Part shown: positions 15,581 through 47,466 of the stretch, in pieces | Layout of the letters: each line of letters opens with the position of its first letter | How positions within the stretch are numbered: position 1 is the stretch's first letter | Source of the DNA: an uncultured Phycisphaerales bacterium | GTDB lineage: Bacteria > Planctomycetota > Phycisphaerae > Tepidisphaerales > Tepidisphaeraceae | DNA: 64,000 nt | Direction of reading: 5' to 3' | Assembly (NCBI GenBank): GCA_963758525.1 | Contig: CAVWVQ010000003.1 | Location: forward strand, 2,624,001 to 2,688,000 | The notes under the pieces: generated by a model | Told to the model about the DNA's origin: nothing | Databases searched by the model: none | The model's input: the letters and a program-made list of their open reading frames with translations, nothing else | Program-made: the position numbers and the translations under genes

Positions 15581-15598
15581 CTGACAGCAGTGTGTCAG
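15581..15598. promoter_or_regulatory. Putative WYL box 1 (CTGACAGCAGTGTGTCAG)
   Basis: Palindrome; on the minus strand TGTCAG-N10-TATTGA points at the ARPP-1 gene. Confidence 0.7.
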
Positions 15599-15746
15599 TG
15601 GGCTCTGCAAAGAAGTTTGGCGAATCCGTTTTGAGCGTTACATTTCGCTCACGGCTTATCGCGACCGAGGACAGCAGACCCGTTGGTGAGGGAGTCGAAC
15701 GGATTCGAGAACCCTGTGGGCAGCTGGTGGGCGAATCGAGGATGCT

Positions 15747-17357
15747 GTGATATTTCCCACGGATTGGATCAAGCAGGCCATCCTCCACCCCGAGCAGGCA
15801 GTCCGAGCGACCGCATTGCTGTACTTCACCGAGTCATTCAGCGATGACCCTGCGGTGATGCCGTTCGTGATCCAGGCGGTCGAACGATACGGCAAAGAAA
15901 CCTCCTTTGATCTGCTCCGTCACGCCGAATGGCTGTGCCAGACTCCGGCGACCGTTGATTGGCTCATCGGCCAGCTTCGCTGTGAGCTCGACACCACAGA
16001 CATCAACGAGGACAACCTGCGCTTTGCCCTCGCACTCATCCTGTGCCACGCCGAACCGCAACTGCTGGCCCACCGTTACGGCGAGATTATCGCTTCCCCT
16101 GCTTTTCCCGAGTCGCTCAGGGAACCGCTGCGTGAGTGTCTGAAAATGGAATTCTCCGACTGGCTGACGCTATGGAAGATGTTTGAGGAACTCGCCCGGC
16201 AGACGATGGAGAATCAGAGACTGTCGAGGGCCGACTACCACCGATATCACCGCATAATGCGGGCGCTGGCCCGCCACACAGCCGCGGACGCGGACTTGGT
16301 GCTGTCATTGTTGCGCGATTACCGAGGTCACGACCAGGCACTGGTGGTGTGGTTGGAGCCGTGTATCGTTGAACTTGCCGGGCGATTGCGGCTGGTCGAT
16401 GCGATCCCACTGATCCTTGAGCGAATCGACGCCGACACGGATGCCGTGGTGGACGAGATCAGCAACGCCCTCATCCGGATCGGGGGCGATGCCGTGGTAA
16501 CCGCCGTCATCAAGAGATGGCCTTCGGCCCGCACGAACTCCCGATACATACTGGCTGAGGCTCTGCAACACATCCACACAGATACGGCCCATAAACATCT
16601 GCTTGACTGCTTGAAAGCGCCTGACGATTGTGATCTGGAAATCTACATCACCAACTGTGCACTGGGGCACTTCAGCCAGCGAGCCAACGAGGCGGCACGG
16701 CAACTGTTGCTCGAATTCGGCGAGGAGGAACTGAGTGGCGAGCATTGGGATTTACGTTACCACCTGATTGCCGCCGCCACATTGATGGAGGAATCTTTCC
16801 CAGAATATGAGGCGTGGCATGAGGAGGCGGTGAGAAGCAACTACGGCAGGACGAAGCTCAGGCAGGACAAGCCCAGGCGATTGGCCGATGCCTTCACGGG
16901 AGACGAGGAAGCACCCTCACCTTCGAGCGGCGGCAGGAGCAGCAGTGTGCCTGCAAAACCGAGGCGCAAATTGGAGGTCCAAAGATCCAGTAGCGGTTGC
17001 GGCGACAATGCTGCGCCCACAAACCAGAACGAATCCGTCAGCACGATCTCTGTCTCGGCCGACCAACTCTGGAAAGATTTCCAGGAGAACGAAGTCGCGG
17101 CCAACATGAGATACAAGGGGAAAACCGTAAGGGTCGAAGGAAGCGTCGCAGCTATCAAGGTCAAATCCGGCAGGCCCCACATTTACCTGCGGAGTGAATA
17201 TGATGGCGTAGACTGCGCATTCACGGATTCTGACAATGCTGATCTGGCGAGGTTGAGCAAGGGCAGCCTTGTTGCCGTTCAAGGTGACTGCACGGGCATG
17301 GTTTACGGGATCGTGGTGGCGCTGGACAATTGTCGATTGATTCAGGGAAGTTCATGA
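15747..17357 (+). CDS. HEAT-repeat-like protein fused to a C-terminal tRNA_anti-like OB-fold
   Basis: AIPLILERI...ALIRIGGDAVV repeats; C-terminal SADQLWKDFQENEVAANMRYKGKTVRVEG. Confidence 0.7.
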   Translation: MIFPTDWIKQAILHPEQAVRATALLYFTESFSDDPAVMPFVIQAVERYGKETSFDLLRHAEWLCQTPATVDWLIGQLRCELDTTDINEDNLRFALALILCHAEPQLLAHRYGEIIASPAFPESLREPLRECLKMEFSDWLTLWKMFEELARQTMENQRLSRADYHRYHRIMRALARHTAADADLVLSLLRDYRGHDQALVVWLEPCIVELAGRLRLVDAIPLILERIDADTDAVVDEISNALIRIGGDAVVTAVIKRWPSARTNSRYILAEALQHIHTDTAHKHLLDCLKAPDDCDLEIYITNCALGHFSQRANEAARQLLLEFGEEELSGEHWDLRYHLIAAATLMEESFPEYEAWHEEAVRSNYGRTKLRQDKPRRLADAFTGDEEAPSPSSGGRSSSVPAKPRRKLEVQRSSSGCGDNAAPTNQNESVSTISVSADQLWKDFQENEVAANMRYKGKTVRVEGSVAAIKVKSGRPHIYLRSEYDGVDCAFTDSDNADLARLSKGSLVAVQGDCTGMVYGIVVALDNCRLIQGSS

Positions 17358-17461
17358 ACTGCTGCGGATGGCCAGGACCATCGCCGCACTGTGGTGCCCC
17401 ATGCCTCCCGCCACGCCTGAGGGCTTTTGCCACGACGCTGCTGGTAAACGAGCACACGCTC

Positions 17462-17479
17462 CTGACAGCATTGTGTCAG
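17462..17479. promoter_or_regulatory. Putative WYL box 2, autoregulatory position (CTGACAGCATTGTGTCAG)
   Basis: Palindrome ~80 bp upstream of the WYL gene start. Confidence 0.7.
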
Positions 17480-17557
17480 CGACGCTCCCAGCAAATTTTG
17501 GCGAAACAGTTTTTCACCGTTAGGATGCCGCTTACCACTGACACAGGGGTGCTCGCG

Positions 17558-18598
17558 ATGGCTGCGGACTACTCTCGGATTCACCGGCTGCTCAAGATCC
17601 TCATGCTCATCCAGGGGCAGAAAGATTGGACCGCCAAGCGCCTGGCGCTGGAATGTCACACCACCGAGCGAAGCATCTACCGTGATCTCAAGATGCTGCA
17701 GGGAGCGGGCGTGCCGTATTTCTTTGACAAGGAGAATGGCGGATACGCCGTGCAGAGGGACTTCTTCATGCCGGCGGTGGCTCTCACCCTTGAAGAGTCC
17801 CTGGCCCTGGTGGCGCTGGCCGAGCAAGTAGGGGGGCGCGAGCAGGTGCCATTCACCAAGGCGGCCGCCAAGGCAATCGCCAAGATCCGCTGCAACCTGC
17901 CGCCGAAGGTGCAGCAGGAGCTGCAGAAGATCGACGATCTGGTCGCTATTCACCTCTCACCCGTGAATCCACCGGAGGGCACGGAAGATGTCTACGAGGT
18001 GGTGCGGGCGGCGCTGGCCAACCGCAAGACGCTGGAATGCAGCTACGACTCAATCGGCGCGAGTCAGAAGGGGGTTGATGGCAATGGCGGTGTGAAAGAG
18101 ATCTTTTTGTTCAGGCCGTACACGCTGCTGTTCAGCCAGCGGGCCTGGTACGCGCTGGGGCACCACGATGGCAGAGGTGCCGTGCGGTGTCTGAAGCTGA
18201 ACCGCTTCACACGCTGCAAATCTACCGAGATTCTTTATGACATTCCCAAGAGCTTTGCGGTCGGCAAACATCTGGGCAATGCGTGGCGGATGATCCGGGG
18301 GAGCAAGTCATACGATGTCGAGTTGCGGTTCGATGCCGAGTTCGCCGAGACCATTGCCGACACGCACTGGCACGCAACGCAGGAAGTGATCTGGAACGAC
18401 GACGAGTCAATCACGTTCTGGTGCGAAGTAGACGGTTTGGACGAAATCGTGTGGTGGATCCTGGGGATGGGCCCGCACTGCGTGGTGAAGAAGCCGGCGG
18501 AGTTGGCGAGCCAGGTCAGTGGTCTGGCCGCGGCGATCGTCAAGCAGTACGACGCGAAGCCCTCCAGCAAGCCCCGCAAAAAGATAACTTCACTGTGA
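17558..18598 (+). CDS. HTH-WYL-WCX transcriptional regulator (PafB/YafY/DriD-like)
   Basis: RIHRLLKIL...TERSIYRDLKML wHTH; FRPYTLLFSQRAWYALG...LKLNR WYL; EIVWWILGMG WCX. Confidence 0.93.
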   Translation: MAADYSRIHRLLKILMLIQGQKDWTAKRLALECHTTERSIYRDLKMLQGAGVPYFFDKENGGYAVQRDFFMPAVALTLEESLALVALAEQVGGREQVPFTKAAAKAIAKIRCNLPPKVQQELQKIDDLVAIHLSPVNPPEGTEDVYEVVRAALANRKTLECSYDSIGASQKGVDGNGGVKEIFLFRPYTLLFSQRAWYALGHHDGRGAVRCLKLNRFTRCKSTEILYDIPKSFAVGKHLGNAWRMIRGSKSYDVELRFDAEFAETIADTHWHATQEVIWNDDESITFWCEVDGLDEIVWWILGMGPHCVVKKPAELASQVSGLAAAIVKQYDAKPSSKPRKKITSL

Positions 18599-18612
18599 CG
18601 CGGTGCTGTCAG
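18595..18612. promoter_or_regulatory. Putative WYL box 3 (GTGACGCGGTGCTGTCAG)
   Basis: Same spacing; overlaps the WYL stop codon and precedes ORF 18663. Confidence 0.55.
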
Positions 18613-18662
18613 AGAGCCGCGGCACCGTGCTGCTGGAACATAGAATTAGGCAAGGAAGCCTC

Positions 18663-18944
18663 ATGGCGCAGAAGCGGCAAGAAATCACTGGTGCGAAGAC
18701 CATGTCTGACGAGCGGATATGTCGGTGGGCGATGCTGGCAACGATGCGCACTCTCCGGCTGTCGTTGCGGAAGGGGAGGCCGATCAGTCTGCCCAACCTG
18801 CTGCGCCTGTTCCAGCGAAGATGCGCCGAACGAGCTCTCGCTGGCAACCAGGCACGTGCTCATCACCGGCTGGAGAGTTGGTATCGCCAACATCAGCCGT
18901 TTCAGCAACTGGCCCGACGGTGGTGCTGCCCGCCGCCTCGCTGA
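18663..18944 (+). CDS. Small basic hypothetical protein
   Basis: AAGGAAG RBS and ATG downstream of box 3; the 3' end overlaps an IS remnant. Confidence 0.4.
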   Translation: MAQKRQEITGAKTMSDERICRWAMLATMRTLRLSLRKGRPISLPNLLRLFQRRCAERALAGNQARAHHRLESWYRQHQPFQQLARRWCCPPPR

Positions 18945-19557: not shown

Positions 19558-19691
19558 CTACCCCAGAAATTGGGTGTGAGCGTGCGGGTTCATTCGGTAA
19601 CGCGCTGCCGATGGCTTGCAGCAATTCCACCATTGGGATTACCAGATAGGAAGATTTCCAACCTGCTGTTAACGCATCGGAATCTGTATCG

Positions 19692-20816: not shown

Positions 20817-21071
20817 CCCCGGGGATTGTATGCCGTGTCGGCGGGTCGCGCAAGCAGGAATTACCTACTGAATTAAAGATTACTCTGTGTATTTTGTGTT
20901 CGCAAGGTTTATTCTGCGGGGGCCGTCAGCGAGAGGAGGCCCTTGATGTCGCTGGATCGAATGCGTGTAAATTCGCCTGAAGTTTCCCAGACACAGAGGG
21001 ACAGCTCCACCCACCGGTGGTCCCAGTACACGTTGGTGCCGCTCGCTCTTTCGTCGTTCAGAGTTTTTGGC

Positions 21072-21905
21072 ATGAGTACTCCATCCACGATCGACATCAA
21101 GGCCCCGATGTTGTTCCACGACGGATCATCACCGCCGACCGCTGTAGTTGTTTTCGATGCGTTCCGGTGTTCGTCCACGCTCCTGGCTTGCTTCGCTCGC
21201 GGATTGCACGCGGCGGTATTGTCGGAGAAGGGCCAGTCGGCGGCCGGTACGACGATCGGTAAGGCGGAGCAACTAGCACAAGAGCTGAAATGCAAATTAA
21301 TCCTCGGCGGCGAACTGCATGGGCGTGCCGTCAGCGGAGGTGTTGTCGGCAACTCACCGATCGAGTCCTGCACAGCAATTCTTGACGACAGAAAGCTTCT
21401 GCATTTTCAGTCTACTAACTTTGCCCGGTCGTTCAACAAGATCACGGACTACGTACATCAGCAGCGGGAGGGTTTGGTGGAGATATTCGTCATTAGCTAT
21501 GCGAACGCCGCCATCACAGCACAACTAATTCAGAGTTCTGGATACGAACGCATCATCGCTGTTTGTGGTGGTTTCTTCGATTGCATGGCCATCGAAGATA
21601 TGACGCTCGGTGGCAGGTTCATTAGCGAGCTCGGGATCGACGACGGGGATCTCGATGACGATTCGCTGGCGATGCTTGCGTGCTACCGTGCTCTAAATCC
21701 GACGCCTGCCCTTGTGGGTGGGGGTTGGGCAGGACGAGTTCTCCGGCACATTGGTAAAGCCGAGGACATCTGGGACGTCATCGGCACGTCGCGGTTGCCA
21801 CAGCATCAACGCCGCCGCATGTCGAACTTAATCTTGCAGGTTAGATGGATTCACGGCACCCCGATGATTCAAGCGGTGGCCAGTCAACTCCTAACGAGAG
21901 TGTAG
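21072..21905 (+). CDS. 2-phosphosulfolactate phosphatase (ComB)-like protein, divergent
   Basis: VVFDAFRCSST, GGE..G...GNSP, STN, VCGG...IED. Confidence 0.75.
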   Translation: MSTPSTIDIKAPMLFHDGSSPPTAVVVFDAFRCSSTLLACFARGLHAAVLSEKGQSAAGTTIGKAEQLAQELKCKLILGGELHGRAVSGGVVGNSPIESCTAILDDRKLLHFQSTNFARSFNKITDYVHQQREGLVEIFVISYANAAITAQLIQSSGYERIIAVCGGFFDCMAIEDMTLGGRFISELGIDDGDLDDDSLAMLACYRALNPTPALVGGGWAGRVLRHIGKAEDIWDVIGTSRLPQHQRRRMSNLILQVRWIHGTPMIQAVASQLLTRV

Positions 21906-21907
21906 AG

Positions 21908-22321
21908 ATGAATTGCTTCATCATCAAGAAGTCCTTCCACTTTCACGCGGCCCACCGCAACGAAGATCTTTCTAACGATAGATGCTTCTCAATTCACGGT
22001 CATACGTACCACGTAGACTGTCACTTCGCTTTCACAAAAGCCGACTCCCACAGTGTCACGATGCTATTTTCTGATATTGAGAAGCAGGTACTCCCGGTGC
22101 TGGCTCCATTCGAGCACAGCTTCATCGTGAATCGGGTAGACCCCCTATATACGGTGTTGAGGGACCAAGGCATTAAACTCTGTGTCCTCGATCATCCCTC
22201 ATCTGCGGAAAATCTCGCACAACTATTCTTCGATCGAATACGGGCGAACACTGAGCTGAACCTAGTTCGGTTAGACCTTCAGGAGACGGAGAGTTCTGTC
22301 GTTTCCTATTGTGGTTCCTAG
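21908..22321 (+). CDS. queD: 6-carboxytetrahydropterin synthase / PTPS family
   Basis: KSFHFHAAH, CFSIHGHTY, SAENLA, LQETES. Confidence 0.9.
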   Translation: MNCFIIKKSFHFHAAHRNEDLSNDRCFSIHGHTYHVDCHFAFTKADSHSVTMLFSDIEKQVLPVLAPFEHSFIVNRVDPLYTVLRDQGIKLCVLDHPSSAENLAQLFFDRIRANTELNLVRLDLQETESSVVSYCGS

Positions 22322-22928
22322 GTACAGCAGGCCGAAGGACGTGGCCGAAATGAATCCTCTTTTGCTGATACCGAAGTGGTTGTACATGGCACGCAAACAT
22401 GGCGTGCCGAAGCCGGAGGCGTTCTGCTTGAGCACCATCACAAGGGCGGGAATGCCGTCTTCGCGGATGATGTTGGTAACCGAATGTCTTGACGGGGAGC
22501 TAATCTTTTGCACTGACTGTCGGAGCAATAAGGGTCAAAACATATCTGATAATCCCGCGGCGGCGGCGTTGCTCTATTGGCAGCCAATTAGTCGCCAAGT
22601 GCGGCTCGAAGGAACGATCGAACCCGCACAGGATTCACTTGCAGACGCAGATTTCAATAGAAAAACGGCTGGTCAGCGGTTGATCATTTCGCTGGGCATC
22701 CAGAGCAGCACGCTGCGTCGCTACCGCCGTCTTGCTTTTGACGTTTCTGACAAGCTGTCAGTGATGGCGGACGGTGCTCAGCTGACTAGGCCGTGGTACT
22801 GGAAGGCATATCGCCTGCGAGCTTCACGCGTCGAATTTTTCCGTGGCGGCTCGCATCGGCTGAATCGTCGGCTCTCGTTCCTATTAGATGAGCGCGGCCG
22901 ATGGAAAGCTCAACGTCTATATCCCTAG
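22311..22928 (+). CDS. Pyridoxamine 5'-phosphate oxidase (PdxH/PhzG)-like FMN enzyme, divergent
   Basis: LSTI...PSSRM, SNKG, RQVRLEG, RPWYW, VEF...RL...W...RLYP. Confidence 0.8.
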   Translation: MVPRYSRPKDVAEMNPLLLIPKWLYMARKHGVPKPEAFCLSTITRAGMPSSRMMLVTECLDGELIFCTDCRSNKGQNISDNPAAAALLYWQPISRQVRLEGTIEPAQDSLADADFNRKTAGQRLIISLGIQSSTLRRYRRLAFDVSDKLSVMADGAQLTRPWYWKAYRLRASRVEFFRGGSHRLNRRLSFLLDERGRWKAQRLYP

Positions 22929-22963
22929 CCACCGATAAGGTAACGGCCATCCATCAGGAGTTT

Positions 22964-23935
22964 ATGATCGACGCTGTCCAGTTAATCTCGCACGCGGTGT
23001 TTGATCTGCCAGACGCCGGTGACACGGTCGCAATCCTTTGCCATTTCAACCCGTGCCTCTACATATCACCCGTCCGGAATCTCGCAGCCACCCTCGATTG
23101 GCTTTTGGCGGAAGAACTTCCCACGTATGCAATCGAGCTGAGGTGCGGTCATAGCGTATCTGCACCACCCGTCTTACCAGTTGGCCATCGGAAGGTGCTT
23201 CAACTTACCAGCGACTCCTGGATGTTCGTGAAAGATAATCTTTGGAATGTTCTTGCGAAAAATCTACCGGCTCACTTCTCGAACATAATCTGCGTCGACG
23301 CTGACGTGAGCTTGAGGACACGGGGTTGGAAAAAGACCTTAGCAGATCGCTTAGGGTCATTTCCAGTCGTTCAGCCGTTTAGCCGCGGGGTTTGGCTTGA
23401 TTCCATTGGCAATGTGTTCAAAGAGAAATACTCGTGCGGTTATGCGGCCAACTGCGGCCTCCCGACGCCGCATCTGTCAAAGGAATATCACTGCGGATTT
23501 GCGGTCGCCGTGCGGCGAGATTTCTGGGCGGAGACCGGCGGCTTTTTCAATAGCCCGGTTGGGGGTGGGTCGTTGTTCCTTATGTCAGCTACGCTCGGCG
23601 TAGAAAATGAACTCGAGCCGATCCTTTCCAGTGCAGCTCCAGCGTTTGCTCGCCAGTACCGGGAGTGGGCTGACCGAGTTAGATGTTGGTCCCACCAAAG
23701 GCTGGGGCACGTGGACGGCGATGCTTACCACCTTTGGCACGGATCCCGGGCCAAGCGTCGCTACTTTGACAGATTTGAACTACTCAGCGGCTTCGATCCA
23801 TTCACGGATGTCGAAAGTAAGCCGTCGGGACTCCACGAATGGAGCCCAGTGGCTCGGACGACTAAGCAGACTATGTTGCGGAGAATTGAGGACTACTTCA
23901 AAGAACGCGAGGAAGACGAGCACGTCGTTCCCTGA
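22964..23935 (+). CDS. Putative GT-A fold glycosyltransferase-like protein
   Basis: KDNLWN, ICVDADV (DxD), VVQPF, GFAVAVRRDFW, HLWHG...RRY; AGGAG RBS. Confidence 0.6.
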   Translation: MIDAVQLISHAVFDLPDAGDTVAILCHFNPCLYISPVRNLAATLDWLLAEELPTYAIELRCGHSVSAPPVLPVGHRKVLQLTSDSWMFVKDNLWNVLAKNLPAHFSNIICVDADVSLRTRGWKKTLADRLGSFPVVQPFSRGVWLDSIGNVFKEKYSCGYAANCGLPTPHLSKEYHCGFAVAVRRDFWAETGGFFNSPVGGGSLFLMSATLGVENELEPILSSAAPAFARQYREWADRVRCWSHQRLGHVDGDAYHLWHGSRAKRRYFDRFELLSGFDPFTDVESKPSGLHEWSPVARTTKQTMLRRIEDYFKEREEDEHVVP

Positions 23936-29660: not shown

Positions 29661-29694
29661 CTGCCACAACGTTGTCAGTGGCGTTGTGCATACT
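29661..29694 (+). promoter_or_regulatory. Putative WYL box 4 plus -10 (CTGCCACAACGTTGTCAG-N10-CATACT)
   Basis: Directly upstream of the YbjN gene RBS (AAAGGAG). Confidence 0.65.
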
Positions 29695-29721: not shown

Positions 29722-30315
29722 ATGGCAAAGAGATCGAACGCAATGGCGCGGTTGAAGCAGTTTCTGAACCGCAGTGGCTGGCAGTACATGACCGACAAGG
29801 AGCAGACGCTTCGCGGCCTGATGAGCGGCGACAACGGCCAGTGGAACTGGATCGCCACACAAACGGATGATGACCGGTTTCTGATGTTTTGCGCAAGTTC
29901 CCCCGTGAAGGTGCCGCCAAAGAAACGTCTCGCGGTCGCGGAATATCTCACTCGCGCCAACTGGTGTTTCCAGTTCGGCAACTTTGAAATGAACTGGTCT
30001 GACGGGCAGGTGGTGCTCCGCACGTCCATTCCCATCACGGCGGGGTCTGCGCCACCCGACGCGATCGAGCACCTGGTCTATGGCAACTGCTCGTTGATGG
30101 ACCGTCACCTGCCGGGCTTGCTGGCAGTGAGCATCGGCAATGTGAAGCCGGCGCAGGCGATAGCGGACGTGCAGCGCGGCCCTGATGTGCCCAGCGCGGA
30201 AGAGAACTCCGCAGTGACGGCTGGCGATTGCCCTCAGACACCCGATGCCTCGACGGTGATTCCGCGGCCGGTGTCGCCGAGCGGGCTCGATGGATTTTCC
30301 GCCGGCAACAACTGA
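29722..30315 (+). CDS. YbjN-domain (T3SS chaperone-like) protein
   Basis: VAEYLTRANWCFQFGNFEMNWSDGQVVLR. Confidence 0.8.
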   Translation: MAKRSNAMARLKQFLNRSGWQYMTDKEQTLRGLMSGDNGQWNWIATQTDDDRFLMFCASSPVKVPPKKRLAVAEYLTRANWCFQFGNFEMNWSDGQVVLRTSIPITAGSAPPDAIEHLVYGNCSLMDRHLPGLLAVSIGNVKPAQAIADVQRGPDVPSAEENSAVTAGDCPQTPDASTVIPRPVSPSGLDGFSAGNN

Positions 30316-31572: not shown

Positions 31573-31606
31573 CTGACCAGGTGTTGTCACTGTGGCCAGA
31601 TACACA
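31573..31606 (+). promoter_or_regulatory. Putative WYL box 5 (CTGACCAGGTGTTGTCAC-N10-TACACA)
   Basis: Between the divergent HEPN-like and nuclease-helicase genes. Confidence 0.6.
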
Positions 31607-31718: not shown

Positions 31719-34700
31719 ATGTACCACGACACAGAGGGCCTGCGCTTTTCGCCCACCGACCTGATCGTCTACCTGGAGGGTGAGTTCGGCTCATGGATGG
31801 ACCGGTCGTATCTGGAGCAGAGGCGAGAAATGAACGCACCGGCGACGGCCGCAGGCGCGGCGCTGGCGTATCGGCCGGATGGCGACAGCGCGGAAATGAA
31901 GCTGATCAAGGTCAAGGGAATAGAGCACGAGCAAGCATTCCTGCAGTCGCTCAAGACAGCGGGTTACAGAATTGTCGAGGTTATCCAGGGCGATGACGCC
32001 GCAGGTCACACTCTGCAGGCCATGCGCGATGGCGCTCAGGTCATCTATCAGGCGTGCGTCGAGGCCGCACCGTTCCGTGGTTACGCCGACTTTCTGAATC
32101 GACAGGGGGGCATCTCATCCCTGGGCGCACACCACTACGAAGTCTGGGATACGAAGTTGGCGAAATCCGCCAAGCCGTATTTCGTGATCCAGCTGTGCGC
32201 CTATGCCGAAATGCTCGAAGTGCTGCAAGGCCGCCGGCCGGAGGGCGTGGAGATTGTGCTGGGCACCAACGATCGCCGGCGTTTCAGGACCAACAACTAT
32301 TTTTACTACTACCGCTGTCTGAAGAACGGTTTTTTGAAGTTCCAGGAAAAGTTCGACGCAGAACAGATGCCTCATCCCGGTTTCTCACGGGGCTACGGGC
32401 GCTGGAGCGACGTGGCGGAGAGGATCCTGGCCGAATCCGACCACCTGATTGGCGTGGCACGGATGACCCGAACGCAGGTGAAGCGGCTGGAAGCTGCCGG
32501 CATCACGACGATCGCGGCGCTGGCCGCTTCCAATCAGTCGACAATCCTCGGCATGGACCCCCTGATCCTGGCCCGGCTCAGGAAACAGGCGCAGCTGCAG
32601 ATTCAATCTCGTGGCAAAGACACGCCGGCATTCGAGGTGGTGGCACCGCAGGCCGACGATCCCCGGCGCGGGCTGGCGCTTCTGCCACCTCCTTCGCCGG
32701 GGGATGTGTTCTTCGACATGGAAGGCTACCCCTTTGCGGCCGACGGATTGGAATACCTGTTTGGAGCCACATATCAGGAAGGGAAAGAGTTGCGGTTCGC
32801 CGACTGGTGGGCGCACGACGCGATTCAAGAGAAAACCGCCTTCGTGGGGTTTGTGACCTGGGCGCACCGGCGATGGAAGCGCGACCCGGACATGCACATT
32901 TACCACTACGCGGCCTACGAGCCCTCGGCGCTGCGACGGCTCATGGGTAAGTTTGCCACCTGCGAAGTCGAGGTGGATGAGCTGCTGCGGAACCAGGTCT
33001 TCGTGGACCTCTACACCGTGGTGCGGCAAGGCGTGGTCGTCGGGACGCCGAGCTATTCACTGAAAGACGTCGAGCGGGCGTACATGCGGCCGCGAACCGG
33101 GTCGGTAACAAGCGCTTCTGGATCGATCATCGCATATCAAGCATGGATGGAGAGTGAGCAGCCGCAGAGCTGGCAGGGCTCCCCGATCCTTCGGGAGATC
33201 CGTGATTACAACCAACTGGACTGTGATTCGACGTTCGAGCTCGCGGTCTGGCTGCGCAGGGTGCAGGCCACGCATAACATCGCCTACCTTCCGGAGAAGA
33301 CCGACGCGCCTGGCGACGCGGATCACGAGGACCCCGGCAGGGAGAATCCCAGCAAGGCTCTGGCCGAGAGACTCCTGAAGGAGATTGAAGACAACAAGGT
33401 CACCGATCCCGAGCGCCGGCGGGTGCAGGAGTTGTTGGCGTGGCTGCTGGAGTTCCACTGGCGAGAAGCCAAGCCGGTCTTCTGGCTCATGTTTGAGCGC
33501 CACGACATGACCGAAGAAGAGCTGTCGGCTGACCTGGACTGCCTCGGCGGCCTGCAACGAACCAAAGAACGACCGATACCGGTAGATCGCTCGCGGTTGA
33601 TCGGCTACCGGTACGACCCTGACCAGGACACCAAACTTTGTCCCGGCAGTAAATGCTTCTTTGCTCACGACCTGAGCGCGAAGGTCACCATCGAGACGAT
33701 GGACCGGCAATAGGGGCTGCTCCAGATTCGGTTCGGTCCATCCGTACCAGAAGTCCCTGACCGACTGAATCTAATTCCCAACGAGTACGTATCTGCAAGG
33801 TCGATCTCTGACGCCGTCTGCCGCTACGTGGATGGATGGAGCCACGGTCAGATTCGATCGCAGGCGGTCGATGATCTGATCCACCGCCGGCTTCCCTGGA
33901 TCAAGAGGCATGCGGGCGGCGCAGTGGTGCCGGACGGCGTCGATCTGCTGCCGGCGCTGACCGACGTCATGCGGCGGCTGGATCACACGACGCTGTGTAT
34001 CCAGGGGCCACCGGGATCGGGCAAAACATTTACCGCGGCGCATGTCATCGCCGAGCTGCTGCGTGACGGCAGACGGATCGGGGTCATGGCCAGCAGCCAC
34101 AAGGCGATCCTGAACCTGATGGAGGCGATCGCCGAGGCCGTTGAAGAGAAAGGGATCACCGCACGGCTGGTGAAGGTGGGTGGCGACGCTGATGAACCGT
34201 TGATCGCAACCGGTGTGGTTGAGCATTGCCCCCAAAACTCAGCTGCCGCAGAGGAACTGGGGTCTCGAAGCCTCGTGCTTGGGGGGACTGCCTGGCTCTT
34301 CAGTCGACCGGAGCTGGAAGGGCAGTTGGATTACTTGTTCGTGGACGAAGCTGGACAGGTTTCGCTGGCGAACATCGTCGGCAGCGGGCCGTGTGCCAGG
34401 AACATCATCCTCGTGGGCGATCAGATGCAGCTATCGCAGCCGACGAAGGGATCGCATCCCGGCGAGAGCGGCCTATCCGCGCTCGATTACCTCCTCCAAG
34501 GACACGCGACGATCCCGCCCGAACTGGGCGTGTTCCTGAGCAAGACATATCGTATGCACCCGGAAGTCTGCGAATTTATCTCGCAGGCCGTGTACGAGGG
34601 GCGGCTGAAGTCTCATCCCGATACCGCCAGGCAGGCGGTCCTCTGCGGTGATAAAGACCACGGAATGATCCGACGGCAGTCAGGCGTGAGCTTTGTGCCC

Positions 34701-35168
34701 GTCGAGCATGAAGGCAACGCCCAGGCAAGCGACGAGGAAATCGAGATCATCGAGGCGATCATCAGGCAGTTGCTCGGCAGGTGCGTGGTTGAGCGTGATG
34801 GTACGCAACGGGATTTAACGCTCAGCGACATCCTGATCGTCGCGCCGTACAACATGCAGGTCCGGCGACTGCAGGTCCGGCTGGGAACCAATGCTCGCGT
34901 TGGCACGGTCGACAGTTTCCAGGGCCAGGAAGCTCATGTGGTGATTGTCTCTATGTGCGCGTCGAGCGTGGAAGACAGTCCACGCGGGCTTGAGTTCCTG
35001 TTGAACAAGAACCGCATCAATGTTGCGGTGTCCAGGGCAAAGAGCCTCGCGATTGTGGTGTGGTGCCCGAATCTCATGGCAGCACGCTGCCGCACGATCG
35101 AGCAGATGGAACTCGTGAATCTGTTTTGCTGGCTGGCGGCATATGCGGAAGAGTTGTCGGCCCGATAG
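31719..35168 (+). pseudogene. TM0106-family RecB-like nuclease / RNase H-like / SF1 helicase, with one in-frame TAG at 33711-33713
   Basis: FSPTDL, GYADFL..YEVWDTK, FFDMEG, YNQLDC, QGPPGSGKT, VDEAGQ, GDQMQL, FQGQE, NVAVSRA; both ORFs share one frame. Confidence 0.9.
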
Positions 35169-36247: not shown

Positions 36248-36387
36248 CGCGCCTTCGATGCACTTCCAATCCCGTGGTGATCGAAGCATACGCAGCCTTG
36301 CTAAGCCTCTCCATCGGGGCTGTTCCGTTTTGACTGTTTGCTGGCGTGGGACCGCTCCCAACGTTAATCTTTTCCCACGCGGGGAAC

Positions 36388-39300: not shown

Positions 39301-39399
39301 GATGAAATCGCGGCTGCGATAACGGCGAAGCTGAAGACGGCGATGAAGGAGATGGGCGAGCTTGTGGAGATACTGGAAGGGCAGGAGGTGGACACGTGA
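36388..39399 (+). CDS. In-frame fusion of Type I HsdR N-terminal half and HsdM (N6-adenine MTase)
   Basis: DUF4145-like start, PADY..VVEAKR nuclease, MATGTGKT, DECHRGY, then directly RWDDL...GQYFTPR, DPAAGTGG, TNPPF. Confidence 0.9.
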   Translation: MSTQSNIHSPNFSFLGRHGEVLLRYGALAERYVFDDPNSALIKLRQLGEALAKKIAASIGLAIDPDIDFLGLLNKLRDSGVLTPEVAELFHGLRKAGNAAAHDGVGTQREALHQLKMARILGVWFQKAFGNEPKFKAGPFVPPPDPRQAESALVAELDQLRKQLAAGEAETHTAKLTAQQEAKLRQDAEVRASAMYHDLEAAFALAEDAERRLEADRRQFAQALATQQAQVVQQATVAPATVQATISLAIQAGNALDLSEADTRKLIDAELREAGWEADTPLLRYAAGTRPQKGTNIAIAEWPTASGPADYALFVGLVCVGVVEAKRKNKDVAGSIEQAKRYSRGFTFDANQTATGSPWGSYKVPFLFATNGRPFLRQLITKSGIWFLDGRAAHNNARALQGWYTPSGLLDLLKQDEQAAQETLRAEPTDYLPLRDFQKRAIAAVEKALEQSRRQLLIAMATGTGKTRTSIGMVYRLIKAKRFNRVLFLVDRSALGEQATDAFKDVRLESLKTFSDIYDVKEMGDLRPDADTRLHVGTIQGMMRRILLSEDREPIPVDLYDCIVVDECHRGYRWDDLIMKDGIEQLNFYKSLLLHLGTKGSGRVQAIFADATTSLRQPRNLAKLVTDIDALDWYSAKSEGLGDLYEGLLEKNANEKKSGAGQYFTPRPLIECMVELTQPQAGEFVQDPAAGTGGFLIAADRYIKARTDDLFKLSVRLQDFQKRQAFYGIELVPDAHRLLLMNAMLHDIEGDLILGDTLSADGAKLPVADVILTNPPFGTKKGGGQPTRDDFTYPTSNKQLCFLQHVYRGLRPSTKEKVSRAAIVLPDNVLFEEGVGAQVRADLMDKCNLHTILRLPTGIFYAQGVKTNVLFFTRGLAAKDTGNTKGVWIYNMRANMPAFGKRTPLTIEHFKDFRVAYGRDPLGQSKRKDHGEEGRFRYFTREFIRDKKGESLDISWLKDDSDGSNEVLPDPDEIAAAITAKLKTAMKEMGELVEILEGQEVDT

Positions 39400-41528
39400 G
39401 CGATGAGGATGACATCCTTCCTGCCGGTTGGATCGAGGCTCCGATCAGTGACTTGGCCGTTGAAAGGGTCGAGCAGTCTGGTCCCACAGAAGCCAGCGTC
39501 TTCACTTACATTGATATTGGCAGCGTCGATAATGCGGCGAAGGCAATCGTCAGCCCGAAAGTGATGGAATGCCGGTCGGCACCGAGTAGGGCACGTCAAA
39601 GCGTGAAGACTGGTGACGTCCTTGTTTCAATGACGCGACCGAATCTCAACGCCGTCGCATGCGTACCGCCAGAACTTGACGGAGCGATAGCATCGACTGG
39701 CTTTGACGTTCTCAGATCCTCCGAGATTCACCCGGACTGGATCTTTGCCCACGTCCGGTCGCAGCCATTCGTGGAGAAGATGACGTCTCTCGTGCGTGGA
39801 GCACTCTATCCTGCGGTGAATTCACGCGAAGTGCGGAGCTATGTCATTTCTGTGCCACCTGTGGCCGAACAGAAAAGAATCATCTCGAAGATTTCATCAC
39901 TGGAGAATCGCAGTCGCAAAGTCCGCGAAGCATTGGAAGCAGTCGGTCCATTGTTGAACCATTTCCGGCAATCGGTCTTGGCGGCGGCGTTCCGTGGCGA
40001 CCTCACGGCTGACTGGCGTGCCGCCCATCCCGACACCGAGCCCGCCAGCGCCCTGCTCGCCCGCATCCGCCAGGAGCGCCGCCACAAGTGGGAAAAGGCC
40101 GAGCTGCCCAAGATGAAAGCTAAGGGCAAGAAGCCCACCGATGACAAGTGGAAAGAGCGGTATGAGGAGCCGGAGCCGGTGGTTGACGCCGATTTGCCGG
40201 ATTTGCCGGAGGGGTGGTGCTGGTGCCCTTTGCACGAAGTCGGATACTTAAATCGGGGGAAATCTCGTCACCGTCCTCGAAATGCCGAACACCTTTACGG
40301 CGGTGCTTATCCGTTTGTCCAGACCGGCGACATTGCAAACTCCGGCGGTAAGATCCTGAGACATTCGCAGACTTATTCTGAGGCGGGCTTGGAACAAAGC
40401 CGGCTCTGGCCAACCGGAACTGTATGCATCACGATCGCGGCGAACATAGCAAGTTCCGCGGTTCTCACCTATCCCGCTTGCTTTCCTGATAGCGTGGTTG
40501 GCGTCATCCCGGATTCTCAATTGTGTTCGCCAGAGTTTCTTGAGTTCTTTCTGCGGACGGCCAAGGAAAACCTTGAGCGCTTCGCTCCTGCGACTGCCCA
40601 GAAGAACATCAACGTCGGCATACTAAACGACGTCGCCGTACCTCTCCCACCATCAGGCGAATTACGTGAACTTGTGAGTCGAGTCACGCACGCTTTTAGG
40701 GCGATTTCATGTGTGGAGATTCAAGTCTCTGACGCCCTGCGGGACTTGAGTATTCAAGACCAATCCATCCTCGCCAAAGCCTTCCGTGGCGAATTGGTAC
40801 CGCAAGATCGCAATGACGAGCCGGCGTCGCTCCTGCTGGAGCGCATCCGCGCCGCCCGTGAGCCCGGGGAGAGCAACGACAACGGCAATGGCACTCGCCG
40901 CAAGGGACGACTTAACCACCAGCCTGACGTTGCCGCAACCGACGATGGGCCTCGTCCCGCTTTGGAAGGCAAGCCAGCAGCAAAGGACAAACCAGATGCC
41001 ACCGCCAAACAGTTAGAGCTATTCCAGAAATCCGACGGCCGCACAACCCATGGGAATGTTGCGGTCGCGTCTACCGCTCTACCGATCGACGTGACCGACC
41101 GCGACGAGGTGATGGCTGCCGTGCGCGAGGTATTCACCGACGGCGTCACCCGTGACCGCGAGACGGCCTTGCGGGAACTGTCCAACGCGTTGGGCTATGG
41201 CCGGCTGGGAGCGCGCATTCGCGATGCGCTCGATGGCGATCTTCGCACAGCCGTCCGCCGTGGCATCCTGGAAAATACTCCGGCCGGCTTGCGCATCCTC
41301 TGCCGCAACATCTCCGATTACGACCGCGATTTCTTGATTGAGCAATTGTTGGCCGGCATTGGGACCAATTGGTGGGACCGCGAGGTGTTGATCGAGGGCA
41401 CCGCCCGCTGGCTAGGCTATCGCCGCACCGGACCTGTGATTGCGGAGACGCTTGCAAGCGCCATCACCCTGGCAATCCGGCGTGAGATTCTGTCTGCCGA
41501 TGGTTCGCGCGTCCGACGGCTGAAGTAA
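39396..41528 (+). CDS. hsdS: Type I specificity subunit with an extra C-terminal tandem wHTH-like extension
   Basis: LPAGW/LPEGW, PPVAEQKRI, QSVLAAAFRG, QSILAKAFRGELVPQ; GTGA overlap with the MTase gene. Confidence 0.9.
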   Translation: MSDEDDILPAGWIEAPISDLAVERVEQSGPTEASVFTYIDIGSVDNAAKAIVSPKVMECRSAPSRARQSVKTGDVLVSMTRPNLNAVACVPPELDGAIASTGFDVLRSSEIHPDWIFAHVRSQPFVEKMTSLVRGALYPAVNSREVRSYVISVPPVAEQKRIISKISSLENRSRKVREALEAVGPLLNHFRQSVLAAAFRGDLTADWRAAHPDTEPASALLARIRQERRHKWEKAELPKMKAKGKKPTDDKWKERYEEPEPVVDADLPDLPEGWCWCPLHEVGYLNRGKSRHRPRNAEHLYGGAYPFVQTGDIANSGGKILRHSQTYSEAGLEQSRLWPTGTVCITIAANIASSAVLTYPACFPDSVVGVIPDSQLCSPEFLEFFLRTAKENLERFAPATAQKNINVGILNDVAVPLPPSGELRELVSRVTHAFRAISCVEIQVSDALRDLSIQDQSILAKAFRGELVPQDRNDEPASLLLERIRAAREPGESNDNGNGTRRKGRLNHQPDVAATDDGPRPALEGKPAAKDKPDATAKQLELFQKSDGRTTHGNVAVASTALPIDVTDRDEVMAAVREVFTDGVTRDRETALRELSNALGYGRLGARIRDALDGDLRTAVRRGILENTPAGLRILCRNISDYDRDFLIEQLLAGIGTNWWDREVLIEGTARWLGYRRTGPVIAETLASAITLAIRREILSADGSRVRRLK

Positions 41529-41864: not shown

Positions 41865-42197
41865 TCAAGACACTGTCCAGCGGTAGTCATAGTGGTCGAC
41901 TATCGTATCGCTCTGGTCCCGGCAATTCGGAAACGCGTTGTAGAGTATGGCGTTGACCTTGTCATGATCCCCGCCTCTGGGCAATTGTATCTCAACATCG
42001 TTTCGCCAGCCTCCTGGGGCAGTAACGCTGATGCCCTTTAATCCCAGCGATTTGAACAGATTGCGGATGGCGGCGGCCAGTTCTTTTGCCGGAACACTGC
42101 GGTCGACAAAATCAGGCTTGACCGCGTTGGGATCGATTGTGACCAACTTAGCTTGCAACGCTCTCGTTCTGGCCTCTAGCACATCGCGGTCACTCAT
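41865..42197 (-). CDS. Small hypothetical protein
   Basis: GGAG RBS and ATG; preceded by box 6. Confidence 0.6.
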   Translation of the reverse strand: MSDRDVLEARTRALQAKLVTIDPNAVKPDFVDRSVPAKELAAAIRNLFKSLGLKGISVTAPGGWRNDVEIQLPRGGDHDKVNAILYNAFPNCRDQSDTIVDHYDYRWTVS

Positions 42198-42225: not shown

Positions 42226-42243
42226 CTGCCAGCATATTGTCAG
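42226..42243. promoter_or_regulatory. Putative WYL box 6 (CTGCCAGCATATTGTCAG)
   Basis: Same 18-bp spacing, ~30 bp upstream of the 42197 ATG. Confidence 0.55.
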
Positions 42244-42489
42244 AGAGCTGTCAGTGGGGCGTTGGTCGCGTCAATTATCCAACTGCAATGGAAGGGTTAA
42301 GTGAGCACGCGGAGATTTATCGTCCGCTCTCGCAGTGTTCCATGTAAGGGCCACATCCACGCCACATGTCGCCTACGCGCCTTTCACTGTGTACTCCTGC
42401 TCGTGCCACCGAATCGATCACCCGATCGATTAATGCTGGGACGGTTGCTTCCGATCACGTCACGATATTTCTGCTCAAGCTGGTGGAAC

Positions 42490-44610: not shown

Positions 44611-45645
44611 GATTTCCCTTTCAGCAGTTCATCAAGCAGACCATCTGCTTCCTTTTCCAGGGCGAGAATGTCGGCACGGAGGACGTCTAGGCTCTGTCTG
44701 ACGGATCGAATGTTCGGCGCTCGTTAGGTATTGCGCGTTCTTCTATGATCGTCATGATGTTCTCCACATGGAGGACAGATGGCGCACTACGAACTCACGG
44801 ATGATCACTGGAACCTGATCAAGGCACTTTTCCCCGTACAAAAACGTGGCGGACGATGGAACGACCACCGCATCACGCTCAATGGGATGCTCTGGATTCT
44901 TCGCTCCGGAGCTCCATGGCGAGACATGCCCGAACGCTACGGGAAATGGAAGAGCGTCTATGATCGCTTCAACCGCTGGCGGCGCGAAGGCTTCTTCGAT
45001 CGCATCCTCAAAGCACTGCGGATTCGACTCAACAAGGAGGGCAAGATCGATTGGGATCTCTGGCTCGTCGACGGCTCCAATGTGCGTGCTTCTCGCGCTG
45101 CCGCCGGGCGCGCAAAGGGGGCGCGGCCTCGACTTCGAACCGGCCGACCACGCGCTGGGCCGCTCGCGCGGCGGATGGGGATCAAAGTTCCACGTGGTTA
45201 CTGACGGAAAGGGCCTTGTGCTCGCCGTCACCGTTACCGCGGGGCAAACGCACGAATCCACGCAGCTCCACAAGGTGATGCACGCGGTGCAGCACCCCTG
45301 CACATCGGCTGGCCGGGGAAGATCGCGGGCGACAAAGGGTACAGCTACGAAACCGTTCGCCAGTTCCTGGCCGATTGCGGGATCGAAGCCGTCATCCCGC
45401 GCAAATCCAATCAGCCACGACCAAAGGGCGAGCGATTCGATAAAAGCAGCTACCGCAAACGAAGCCGCATCGAGTGTGCTATCGGATGGCTCAAGGAATG
45501 TCGTCGGCTGGGAACACGCTATGAGAAGCTGGCTCTTAACTTCTTGAGCTTCGCCAAACTCGCTATCATGCTGAAATACCTGAGGGTTCTCGATCCGTCA
45601 GACAGAGCCTAACGACCACAGAGGCTGATAGAATACGGCGAACAT
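44607..45645 (-). pseudogene. C-terminal remnant of a second hsdM, interrupted by the IS5
   Basis: Removing the IS gives FYQPLWSLDVLRADILALEKEADGLLDELLKGKS*, overlapping the DUF262 start by ATGA. Confidence 0.65.
44690..45609 (+). mobile_element. IS5-family insertion sequence, 920 bp
   Basis: 19-bp perfect IRs GGCTCTGTCTGACGGATCG; TA duplication; transposase from 44779 (LTDDHW, GAPWRDMP, GRSRGG, GDKGY) split at ~45115 and ~45310. Confidence 0.95.
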
Positions 45646-45647
45646 TG

Positions 45648-46037
45648 TCAGCCCCATGCGCCCGCGGTTGGATCAATCATAACCGTTTCATACCGCTTGT
45701 CGTCCTGAAGATGGCACTTGCTGTGCTGAACATCTGAAAGCAGCCGGAACAAGTCGCCGTCTGTGTCTTCGGCGATCCATTCCGCAAGAGACAACGCCTG
45801 CTGGGCCGACAGCCGTGTGCCATCGATGATGAACGTCAAGCGGATGCCGTATTCGTCGCAGTCGAACGGTTCAGGATCAGGACTCACGATGGGGATGAGC
45901 GACGACCCCACTCGTGTGGCAAATTCCCGTCCGCAGTTGCCAAGCACCCGAAGAAAGGGTTGCAGACCATCAGGTCGGTTCAAAGTGTCTCCTTTCGTAT
46001 TGGCATACAACCGGGGCACGATCACGCGGCTCCCCAT
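45648..46037 (-). CDS. Hypothetical protein
   Basis: ORF downstream of TGTCAG-N10-CATACC on the minus strand. Confidence 0.45.
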   Translation of the reverse strand: MGSRVIVPRLYANTKGDTLNRPDGLQPFLRVLGNCGREFATRVGSSLIPIVSPDPEPFDCDEYGIRLTFIIDGTRLSAQQALSLAEWIAEDTDGDLFRLLSDVQHSKCHLQDDKRYETVMIDPTAGAWG

Positions 46038-46073
46038 CCGCCAGCTTGATGACCAGCGGTATGCCTGCTGGCA

Positions 46074-46091
46074 CTGACAGCGTGCAGTCAG
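46074..46091. promoter_or_regulatory. Putative bidirectional WYL box 7 (CTGACAGCGTGCAGTCAG)
   Basis: N10-TAAATT on plus and N10-CATACC on minus; lies between divergent ORFs. Confidence 0.65.
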
Positions 46092-46198
46092 TAGTCGCAA
46101 ATAAATTCGGCTGGTGGCATGTTGGCGGTTAGACTGCCGGCGGCTTCACGACTGAATGGGGACTTCGCATGGGTACTGGATCTGTCGAGGGAGGTGTG

Positions 46199-46771
46199 AT
46201 GACTAACGAACTGCCATCCGGCTGCATAACGCTCTCTGAAGCAGCCGTGCGATTCGGCCTGTCGACTGACGCGTTATCGATGCTGCTGGTTAAAGCTCGG
46301 GTTGAAGCTGAGATCTACGGCGGAGTCCGTATCCTGTCGCGCGATGCATTGACCCGATTGGAAAATTTCTTGTCGGCACTTCCGCTGGTGCACGTCAGCC
46401 AGCGGCACAAAAAGTTCCGTAAACATGTGAAGCAGGTAAAATCTGCGAGCCCGCGGACGTTCACGGCGATAGAAAAGGCTGCTGATAAACTTGACCCTAG
46501 AGCCACCGATCAGGCGATCCGATCACTCCAAGAAAGATTTTCCACAGACAACTCCGTCACGCAGCCCGGGCCGGGTCTTGCCGAAATCGAGAAGCAACGG
46601 CGTTTACGGGAGAAGCAGCAGCAGCGGCTTGCCAAGCGGCAGGCTACAGAGCATCAGCGCGCGGTGGAGCGGCGGCTTGCGGAACAGAGCATTGCGCTGC
46701 AACAGCTTTTGGCGAAGCGAACGCCGTCGACCTTCTTTGGAAGTACAGGGCCGGACTACCCGGATTCTTGA
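46199..46771 (+). CDS. Hypothetical protein with N-terminal excisionase-like HTH and coiled coil
   Basis: GGAGG RBS; ITLSEAAVRFGLS. Confidence 0.55.
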   Translation: MTNELPSGCITLSEAAVRFGLSTDALSMLLVKARVEAEIYGGVRILSRDALTRLENFLSALPLVHVSQRHKKFRKHVKQVKSASPRTFTAIEKAADKLDPRATDQAIRSLQERFSTDNSVTQPGPGLAEIEKQRRLREKQQQRLAKRQATEHQRAVERRLAEQSIALQQLLAKRTPSTFFGSTGPDYPDS

Positions 46772-46786
46772 CGCGACAACGGATCT

Positions 46787-47323
46787 TTACCGCAGCGTCG
46801 GCCCGATACACTCGGCCGCCTCGGCACCGCTTAGAGTCTTCCGCACGGCCAGCAATTCCGCAAGCCGTTGAATCTTGTCGCGGTGGCGACGGACCAAGCG
46901 GCGGGCCTCAATCCTCAGTCGGGCGAGGTAGGCTTGGTGGATGTCGTCGCCCATGTACGATGTCCCGGAAGGATAAACGCCGTACTCTCGCGAAAGCCAG
47001 AAAGCGTTCTGGTTGTCCGCTCCCCCGTTGCTTTCCGGCGCATCGGGATCAATCAGCCACTCGGCTTCCATGCCCGCGTAACTGCCGATGATCGCCATCC
47101 GGGCAATCGCTCGCCGCTCGCGTTTGGTGTGTGCAATATACCCCAGCGGGGGCGGCGATGTGCAGCAGCCATTGGCGTCGTCGTGCGGTACGCAGGTGAC
47201 GGAATTGACCGCAAGGCCTTGGACAAGGTCGGCAACTGCATGTCCGGCTTCGTGCCAGCATGTGGCCATTTGCTGCGCTTCGGTGCGGCGGTTCTTTTTT
47301 GGGCCTGTTTTCTTCATTTTCAT
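46787..47323 (-). CDS. Stand-alone peptidase M41 (FtsH protease domain)-like metalloprotease
   Basis: HEAGHAV, AGMEAE, GAD, LAELLAVRKTLSG. Confidence 0.75.
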   Translation of the reverse strand: MKMKKTGPKKNRRTEAQQMATCWHEAGHAVADLVQGLAVNSVTCVPHDDANGCCTSPPPLGYIAHTKRERRAIARMAIIGSYAGMEAEWLIDPDAPESNGGADNQNAFWLSREYGVYPSGTSYMGDDIHQAYLARLRIEARRLVRRHRDKIQRLAELLAVRKTLSGAEAAECIGPTLR

Positions 47324-47432
47324 GGCCTTCCTTTTGCGCGCTTCGGTGTCGCCCCAGCAGCAATAACTATACGACATCTCCGGGTTGGGCGACGTCAGGC
47401 TGGAACGCGCATTCGCGATGTGCTCGACGCCG

Positions 47433-47466
47433 ATGACCTCACCACGTCAGTCATTTCGAATAAATT
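47433..47466 (+). promoter_or_regulatory. Putative WYL box 8 (ATGACCTCACCACGTCAG-N10-TAAATT)
   Basis: TGAC-N8-GTCA with a -10 hexamer at N10, upstream of a HEPN gene. Confidence 0.55.

Follow-up and report, generated by a model that had tools for sequence, protein, structure and literature searches.

The window studied here is a stretch of 64,000 nucleotides from an uncultured Phycisphaerales bacterium (C3:2624001-2688000, genome size 6.47 Mb). Accessory DNA spans ~9-52 kb of it and forms an island with genes for ARPP-1, an NDT-like protein, a STAND-type ATPase, a WYL-domain regulator, a YbjN-family protein and a TM0106 nuclease with an SF1 helicase, besides a type I restriction-modification (R-M) fusion, GmrSD, IS5, an HD protein and Mrr. 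This region carries eight variants of one palindrome, CTGACA-N6-TGTCAG, referred to below as the box. A preliminary description of the DNA had listed them as sites of a candidate regulon activated by the WYL protein, and all eight were found where it had placed them (Table 1). The palindrome is likely the operator of that protein, a DriD-like regulator composed of winged helix-turn-helix (wHTH), WYL and WCX domains.

Table 1. Boxes, regulator and putative targets in the window. N followed by a number gives the bases between a half-site and a -10-like hexamer; bits and genome rank refer to the weight matrix described in the text; ORF, open reading frame; a point marks features given without strand.
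Feature	Position	Strand	Details
Putative box 1 operon	9298..15537	-	Co-transcription suggested by gene order; ARPP-1 14545-15537; NDT-like/TIR-effector-like 13395-14450; AAA_16 STAND-type ATPase 10887-13193; weak HEAT-repeat protein 9298-11016
Box 1	15581..15598	.	Perfect, back-to-back; 25.3 bits, rank 2; leftward TATTGA at N10 (ARPP-1 operon); rightward TTGGCG/TACATT at N40 (gene 15747)
536-aa protein	15747..17357	+	C-terminal OB fold (tRNA_anti-like); between two homologous promoter copies
Box 2	17462..17479	.	Perfect; 23.5 bits, rank 4; 41 bp before the WYL gene's own -10 (TAGGAT)
WYL regulator	17558..18598	+	wHTH-WYL-WCX, DriD-like, 346 aa; Pfam HTH_11, WYL and WCX above cut-off
Box 3	18595..18612	+	14.5 bits, rank 21; overlaps WYL stop codon; CACCGT at N10; heads 18663-18944
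Small Arg-rich ORF	18663..18944	+	93 aa, previously unannotated; directly behind box 3; predicted WYL-binding partner
Box 4	29661..29678	+	20.6 bits, rank 5; CATACT at N10; heads YbjN-family gene
YbjN-family protein	29722..30315	+	Putative target
Box 5	31573..31590	+	19.7 bits, rank 8; TACACA at N10; heads TM0106 RecB-like nuclease (31719-33713) and SF1 helicase (33828-35168)
TM0106 RecB-like nuclease and SF1 helicase	31719..35168	+	Putative target; two ORFs, possibly one split gene
Box 6	42226..42254	.	Weakest, with tandem extra half-site; 12.7 and 12.2 bits, rank 40; leftward CATCTG at N10, 28 bp from unknown ORF 41865-42197(-)
Box 7	46074..46091	.	Back-to-back; 19.9 bits, rank 7; leftward CATACC at N10, unknown ORF ~45648-45983; rightward TAAATT at N10 and TAGACT at N38, ORF 46169/46199-46771, uncertain
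Box 8	47433..47450	.	Three mismatches, back-to-back; 14.2 bits, rank 25; leftward CACATC at N10, M41-like peptidase 46787-47323; rightward TAAATT at N10 and TATACT at N38, gene 47599-48237
212-aa protein	47599..48237	+	No Pfam match; HEPN-like weak lead, Atlas 0.77

Seven of the eight boxes have at most two mismatches to the palindrome, and box 8 (ATGACC-N6-CGTCAG) has three. Searching the window with two mismatches allowed gave nine matches, which include 4373 and 42237 and miss 47433; shuffled versions of the window gave a mean of 2.12 matches, and 1 of 100 shuffles reached nine. For scoring, a weight matrix was made from 57 sites at WYL loci of other genomes only, which avoids circularity, and this genome was scanned with it. 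The sites of at least 12 bits in the window are the eight boxes and the tandem site 42237, nothing further. Within 15-48 kb, an interval picked after the fact, there are nine such sites against 0.2 expected, and other 33-kb tiles hold at most three. The match at 4373 was rejected as chance; it lies inside a DUF1800 gene, scores 9.6 bits and has genome rank 138. The idea that the motif stands out from the whole genome holds for strong sites, with 11 intergenic ones of at least 16 bits against 1-3 for control spacers, and fails at 12 bits or more (64 against 40-77). A further element with a box look-alike at two mismatches occurs in eight near-identical copies (C1:204021, 209315; C2:268201-276817) and was treated as unrelated.

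The box accompanies the WYL gene in other genomes, which supports the link between the two that the preliminary description had drawn. At 32 WYL loci, boxes with at most one mismatch were found 19 times at spacer 6 and once over six control spacers; at 29 further loci a box was present in 16, against none of the 29 for each control; and 48 independent metagenome loci gave 36 sites at spacer 6 against five for the six control spacers. Enrichment is confined to the 6-bp spacer (GAC-N8-GTC), with 0-1 sites for the 5-bp control. In a quick tree of 74 proteins, 47 of which have a box within 1.5 kb, the boxes concentrate on the window's branch (32/37 versus 1/10 on the sister branch). These relatives are kin, so the counts overstate independence.

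We give very little credence to the possibility that another transcription factor binds the palindrome and that its link with the WYL gene is incidental. Among 251 genomes of the class, a perfect box was found in 13 of the 16 with a close WYL protein (E<=3e-98), and also in 29 of 234 others, which is above a reversed control (11/251) and speaks for such a factor, as does the frequent lack of an N10 hexamer at dispersed boxes. However, many of these 29 genomes hold more distant WYL relatives, boxes stand on both flanks of WYL orthologues across many families, and no box is present in the three relatives whose recognition helix is altered (RTLSR twice, RQLRR).

The closest relatives of the window's WYL protein come from metagenome-assembled genomes of Tepidisphaeraceae and Phycisphaerales, with 62-70% identity. 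Its best match in the PDB is DriD, both by profile (E 1e-21) and by fold (E 8.5e-20, TM 0.60); PafB follows by fold (E 3.7e-15), and CapW/BrxR, rejected as closest structural kin, rank far below both (E ~4e-9 (3.8e-9), TM 0.32-0.34). The regulator is thus closest to the homodimeric DriD and not to PafBC, with which the preliminary description had compared the promoter spacing; the N10 geometry is common to DriD, SiwR and PafBC. R38 and R42 of the recognition helix align with R37 and R41 of DriD, which are described as reading GTC (PMC10853764; here and below, statements on published systems rest on excerpts of the cited papers), and are at least 90% conserved in 51 relatives. Of the seven DriD residues considered for the pocket for single-stranded DNA (ssDNA; Y168, R178, R189, Y192, R204, R207 and Y240), four are matched here, by Y163, R195, Y198 and R216, which are invariant in these relatives, and three are replaced, as given below.

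The protein is the only WYL regulator of the window, as had been said, and not of the genome, which also encodes a paralogue of 62% identity that has the same promoter template, a boxless paralogue of 42% identity and, at C3:4753277, a fragment of 71% identity. There is one WYL gene per locus, the paralogues lying more than 1 Mb apart. Either the window's protein or its 62% paralogue could serve all the boxes. The latter belongs to a second cassette (C3:805050-807528) formed by a split ARPP-1 gene, a perfect box, the intact WYL paralogue, a weak box and a second small gene.

The spacing between box and -10-like hexamer, which the preliminary description had noted in the window, is conserved in relatives. 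TAnnnT peaks at N10 in 17 of 120 arms, the next-best offset giving five, and 60 independent arms show peaks at N10 (8) and N40 (6). Toward the WYL gene, YAnnnT is found at N38-41 in 13 of 21 distinct arms (one locus listed twice). The usual layout in close relatives is target, -10, N10, box, N40, -10 and WYL gene. This spacing predicts a box centre at -31.5 with respect to one promoter and near -61.5 with respect to the second, which is a classic position for upstream activators. The expected -35 positions fall on the low-information spacer of the box (at most 0.27 bits). CTGACA itself was rejected as a -35 element; it would sit 22 bp from the -10.

In the window, the hexamers quoted in the preliminary description (TATTGA, CATACT, TACACA, TAAATT twice and CATACC) do lie exactly at N10, counted from the nearer half-site and not from the distal one as it had been put. 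In the alignment to the template of the far (N38-41) promoter, TAAATT of 46074 and of 47433 falls on an AT-rich tract, and is probably that tract instead of a -10. Box 3 had been listed, but both its N10 hexamer and the ORF behind it had been overlooked. At box 2 the leftward hexamer has decayed with both half-sites intact, which suggests selection for the rightward, WYL-facing promoter.

Several observations weigh against the box being the operator of an ssDNA-triggered activator, the reading favoured below. Boxes 18595, 42226 and 47433 score where control spacers are equally frequent genome-wide; they are weak alone and convince only through their context. The hexamers in the window are poor, TATTGA, TACACA, CATACC and CACATC having no final T. 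Of the ssDNA-pocket residues, R178 of DriD is replaced by an invariant Phe (F183), R204 by K213 and Y240 by Arg, so the ligand may differ. In addition, none of 56 arms has a hexamer at N10 around 28 of the 29 dispersed perfect boxes of three box-rich relatives (5/56 at N38-42, 5/56 at N52), and therefore N10 seems mainly a trait of WYL-adjacent modules. The -10-like hexamer at N52, about one helical turn past N40, recurs in box-rich relatives (L104, L110, L118, L125, L073).

The same architecture could be read in terms of repression, with the WYL protein, like CapW/BrxR, occupying the box where it covers the -35 region, as well as its own promoter, until a ligand (ssDNA or ADP-ribose products) releases it. 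A site at -23 to -40 could block the polymerase. CapW and BrxR share the domain order found here, are located in defence islands and repress them, CapW sensing ssDNA (PMC11662680); furthermore, the ARPP-WYL two-gene neighbourhood is already published, and WYL factors of ARG/ARPP conflict systems were interpreted as negative regulators that sense ADP-ribose (PMC9503650). Nevertheless, without a conserved -35 and with weak -10s these promoters would be poor unaided, the spacing equals that of three characterised activators, and CapW/BrxR are much the weaker structural match. Repression from a site upstream of -35, as with the N40 box, is unusual, which also weighs against this alternative. We regard it as quite improbable; the data suggest that the ARPP-WYL pair, published as a case of repression, works by activation.

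Among characterised WYL regulators, DriD of Caulobacter crescentus is the nearest model. It has the wHTH-WYL-WCX order over its full length, and its base-reading Arg pair is aligned with that of the window's protein. Its palindrome covers the -35 position, the distance to the -10 being fixed (PMC13004042), and the oligonucleotide, counted by eye, reads GTC-GC-N10-CAATCT (PMC13004042); a site lies in a bidirectional promoter beside its own gene, as here, and a far site at recA is placed 17 nt upstream of the -35 (PMC9186387). The differences are an identity of only ~18%, an operator GAC-N7-GTC instead of GAC-N8-GTC, with C instead of T before GAC (Y41 stands at the position of DriD's E40), the mostly accessory or defence nature of the targets here, and a co-encoded putative small partner, none being mentioned in the excerpts on DriD. 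SiwR of Mycobacterium smegmatis is a homodimer with a palindrome upstream of the -10 in a neighbouring, divergent operon (PMC10693628). The oligonucleotides of its electrophoretic mobility shift assays, counted by eye, give GTC-CT-N10-CAGGGT (PMC10693628 supplement 1); it differs by its N7 spacing and by a local two-gene regulon of DinB-family genes.

PafBC of mycobacteria has the same half-site core and N10 spacing as here, its motif being tGTCgg(N10)tA(N3)T with two Arg reading GTC (PMC8635444). However, PafBC is described as a heterodimer on one half-site, with the second HTH wedged against sigma region 4. A full palindrome and one gene per locus make such a sigma adaptation unexpected here, and a tandem pafB/pafC heterodimer on a single -26 half-site was rejected on the same grounds. 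In DriD, SiwR and PafBC, counted by eye, the hexamer comes 12 bases past GTC, as in our system; together with the far recA site of DriD, this gives both geometries a precedent.

In Moraxellaceae, the WYL activator DdaA has its palindrome in front of repair genes and of R-M and CRISPR-Cas systems, ~50 bp upstream of start sites (PMC12392091, PMC13010146). Its motif, CGWCA-N5-TGWCG, has N7 between GAC and GTC, and it is presented as a core regulator that replaced SOS, whereas the WYL protein here is patchy and coexists with LexA, with recA unboxed. A strict orthologue of DriD or DdaA was rejected, the GAC-N7-GTC operator (CGAC-N7-GTCG or CGWCA-N5-TGWCG) not being enriched. What the system does have in common with DriD, SiwR and DdaA is two recognition-helix Arg four residues apart (R38/R42) and a palindrome in place of the -35 at a fixed -10 distance. 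Read from the sequence, the regulon is of the DriD/DdaA kind with its own operator, and a dedicated small partner, as predicted, sets it apart.

As regards the putative targets, motif conservation, a check that the preliminary description had proposed, was found upstream of WYL-linked ARPP-1 and YbjN orthologues. The box with its N10 hexamer precedes 6 of 31 ARPP-1 homologues, all six of which adjoin a WYL gene, and none of the 24 homologues from an ARPP search alone is boxed. Box and CATACT are retained in three of the eight YbjN homologues with upstream DNA. The gene at 47599 had been called HEPN; it has no Pfam match, and its Atlas score is a weak lead only. Outside the window, strong boxes precede the ARPP-1 gene of the paralogue, an HNH gene (C3:4810577) and a type I-G cas3 operon (C3:1788553). 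The box at C3:4810577 is the top-scoring one of the genome and lies between the HNH nuclease gene and a split NERD-kinase (PglW-like) gene. Among 24 type I-G cas3 loci, five carry the box, compared with 1 of 144 control tests. Of the 166 ORFs next to boxes in relatives, 100 were scanned, and the named hits include Csb1 (2), Cas3 (2), Cas4-Cas1, Cse1, RecA, AddB, RmuC, HIRAN (2), Mrr_N, a DNA methylase and EVE, plus housekeeping enzymes and many unknowns.

The boxes had also been proposed to mark unknown ORFs as candidate defence or repair genes. They are no general mark of defence genes in the island, since a box is lacking directly upstream of its type I R-M, GmrSD and Mrr genes. A global SOS-like regulon was rejected for this genome, in which LexA is present and the score reaches at best 4.8 bits upstream of recA and 1.5 bits upstream of lexA; recA is boxed in two of five box-rich relatives. 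In one relative, three copies of a DUF932 gene (L072, L130, L131) each have a perfect box with CAACCT/CAACAT at N10, which suggests that mobile-element genes can be wired to the host WYL response.

It could be argued that only a local module is regulated, and that the distant boxes (31573, 42226, 46074, 47433) are chance sites or remnants of WYL promoter cassettes that were duplicated or shuffled, so that no 32-kb regulon exists. The copies are indeed not independent: 15581, 17462 and C3:806085 have common flanks, and 46074 and 47433 align to their promoter template. Moreover, the window's WYL protein falls among relatives that adjoin YbjN, and the paralogue among relatives that adjoin ARPP-1, which makes the island a mosaic of cassettes. 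In the loci examined, the targets of boxes 5-8 gave no homologue with a box (0/2 for 47599; none scored for the others). On the other hand, half-sites are retained where the flanks of the copies diverge, 29661, 31573 and 46074 are within the top 8 of the genome, and relatives have dispersed boxes before cas3, cas4-cas1, cse1, recA, addB and rmuC. A diffusible regulator would, besides, act on any intact box. We consider the local module rather unlikely.

We think it probable that the window's WYL protein activates accessory defence genes as a homodimer triggered by ssDNA. Damage or phage replication would supply the ssDNA that activates the WYL dimer, which would then bind the boxes, with R38 and R42 reading the GTC of each half-site as R37 and R41 do in DriD. 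Since the box would occupy -23 to -40 there is no -35 element, and the dimer may stabilise RNA polymerase as DriD does. A box near -61.5 would stimulate the back-to-back promoter, usually that of the WYL gene itself. The activated protein would in this way induce the weak promoters of accessory defence modules, and the co-induced small protein would bind an acidic WYL/WCX surface beside R216, most likely damping the response.

The small protein (18663-18944) is a member of a family that comprises 208 clusters at 50% identity, and its gene has a coding signature (codon-position identity 0.55/0.62/0.38). It has no Pfam or NCBIfam match, and its Atlas neighbours are unnamed. The predicted fold consists of four helices (pLDDT 82), for which Foldseek and VIA-align gave no telling match, the best (Z 7.7) being generic helical bundles. 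Of 45 distinct copies, taken from loci chosen by WYL, 44 lie within 3 kb behind a WYL gene and 29 are boxed, 20 of these with nAnnnT at N10. In whole genomes there are 22 matches in 18 of 251, all 18 with a WYL gene, and 19 of the matches lie within ~1.5 kb directly behind it. A phylum-wide sample gave matches in 4 of 241 genomes, the single one outside the class being weak, with two stops. Many box-carrying WYL genes have no small gene beside them, which counts against the proposed circuit; by identity band it was found in 21/27, 15/32 and 5/33 loci. As a further observation, in a response-regulator-like protein (P0134, by eye) the small-protein domain forms the C-terminus.

A complex of two WYL chains with residues 10-90 of the small protein was modelled. 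The score was 0.83 against 0.00 for the best control, at least 82% of the contacts were common between runs, and the partner had pLDDT 76-78. Of 157 solved pairs, 116 reach the score mark, as do 2 of 215 mismatched ones, counts that apply only roughly to this complex. In the model, N45, R48 and R52 contact WYL residues 140-145 and 215-221 of one chain, and residues 42-44 contact WCX 264-279 of the other, at the edge of the predicted ssDNA cleft, which includes R216. Apart from the start Met, the family has four conserved positions, and N45, R48 and R52 are three of them. The small protein is thus predicted to bind the WYL/WCX surface, the sign of its effect not being readable from the model.

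Tentatively, then, the circuit may have two components, with the operator at -31.5 for defence targets and at -61.5 for the regulator itself, and with a small protein that clamps the WYL-WCX sensor cleft and ends the response. It is a somewhat stronger possibility, if short of an even chance, that the small protein is no brake and either stabilises the active dimer or serves it as a co-activator, or else is an effector of its own, like DidA, with a spurious contact in the model. The model is silent on direction, and two mismatched pairs pass the mark. Counting against the main reading, the small protein's interface positions are not significantly more conserved than the rest of its core (0.62 vs 0.54, p=0.15). 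aciT of the DdaA regulon is said to be a division inhibitor. Published activators do induce small genes, DriD the division-inhibiting didA (PMC10853764) and DdaA aciT (PMC13010146), and in L019 and L036 the small ORF continues in frame into a Csb1-type cas gene. Against this alternative stand the position of the small gene behind WYL in 19 of the 22 whole-genome matches, and the WYL residues of the modelled interface that are more often acidic when it is present (E140 29/31 vs 14/34; D164 31/31 vs 19/34; E264 30/31 vs 11/34), a comparison confounded by kinship. At these two loci (L019:3651-5207, L036:1906-3498), which come from two genomes, the domain of the small protein is continuous with an ORF of the type I-G Cas7 (Csb1/GSU0053) type, recognised by a Pfam match in L019 and by resemblance in L036; it is a possible fusion heading a CRISPR operon.

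The literature searched gave nothing on this motif or on WYL proteins in Phycisphaerae. The system extends WYL-activated damage and defence regulons to Planctomycetota with a defined operator, which flags candidate inducible defence genes: the ARPP-1 operon, YbjN, the TM0106 nuclease-helicase, the HNH gene and type I-G CRISPR. The small protein bears on the way in which WYL activators are turned off. For PafBC, deactivation upon a fall in ssDNA has been described (PMC11804915), and the excerpts mention no protein partner, in searches that were not aimed at WYL-binding proteins. If the small protein does act as a brake, it would be a protein anti-activator for a WYL regulator.

As regards the island itself, phage origin was rejected: none of 10 candidate viral-contig relatives of the WYL gene was confirmed, and a scan of the window gave no tRNA. 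No RNA data set was listed as a holder, which speaks neither for nor against expression. Several genes of the window are seemingly split by frameshifts, at 24404-28488 (alpha-2-macroglobulin), 31719-35168 (nuclease-helicase) and 44779-45547 (IS5); AddB and others elsewhere in the genome are likewise split, and sequencing indels are a possible cause. A low-GC cluster of 2-phosphosulpholactate phosphatase, PTPS-like and pyridoxamine-phosphate-oxidase-like genes lies within the island at 20943-23935 and has no box. In the type I R-M locus (36346-41528), likewise with no upstream box, a short HsdR-like part is fused to the methyltransferase (1017 aa), and the specificity subunit has 710 aa.

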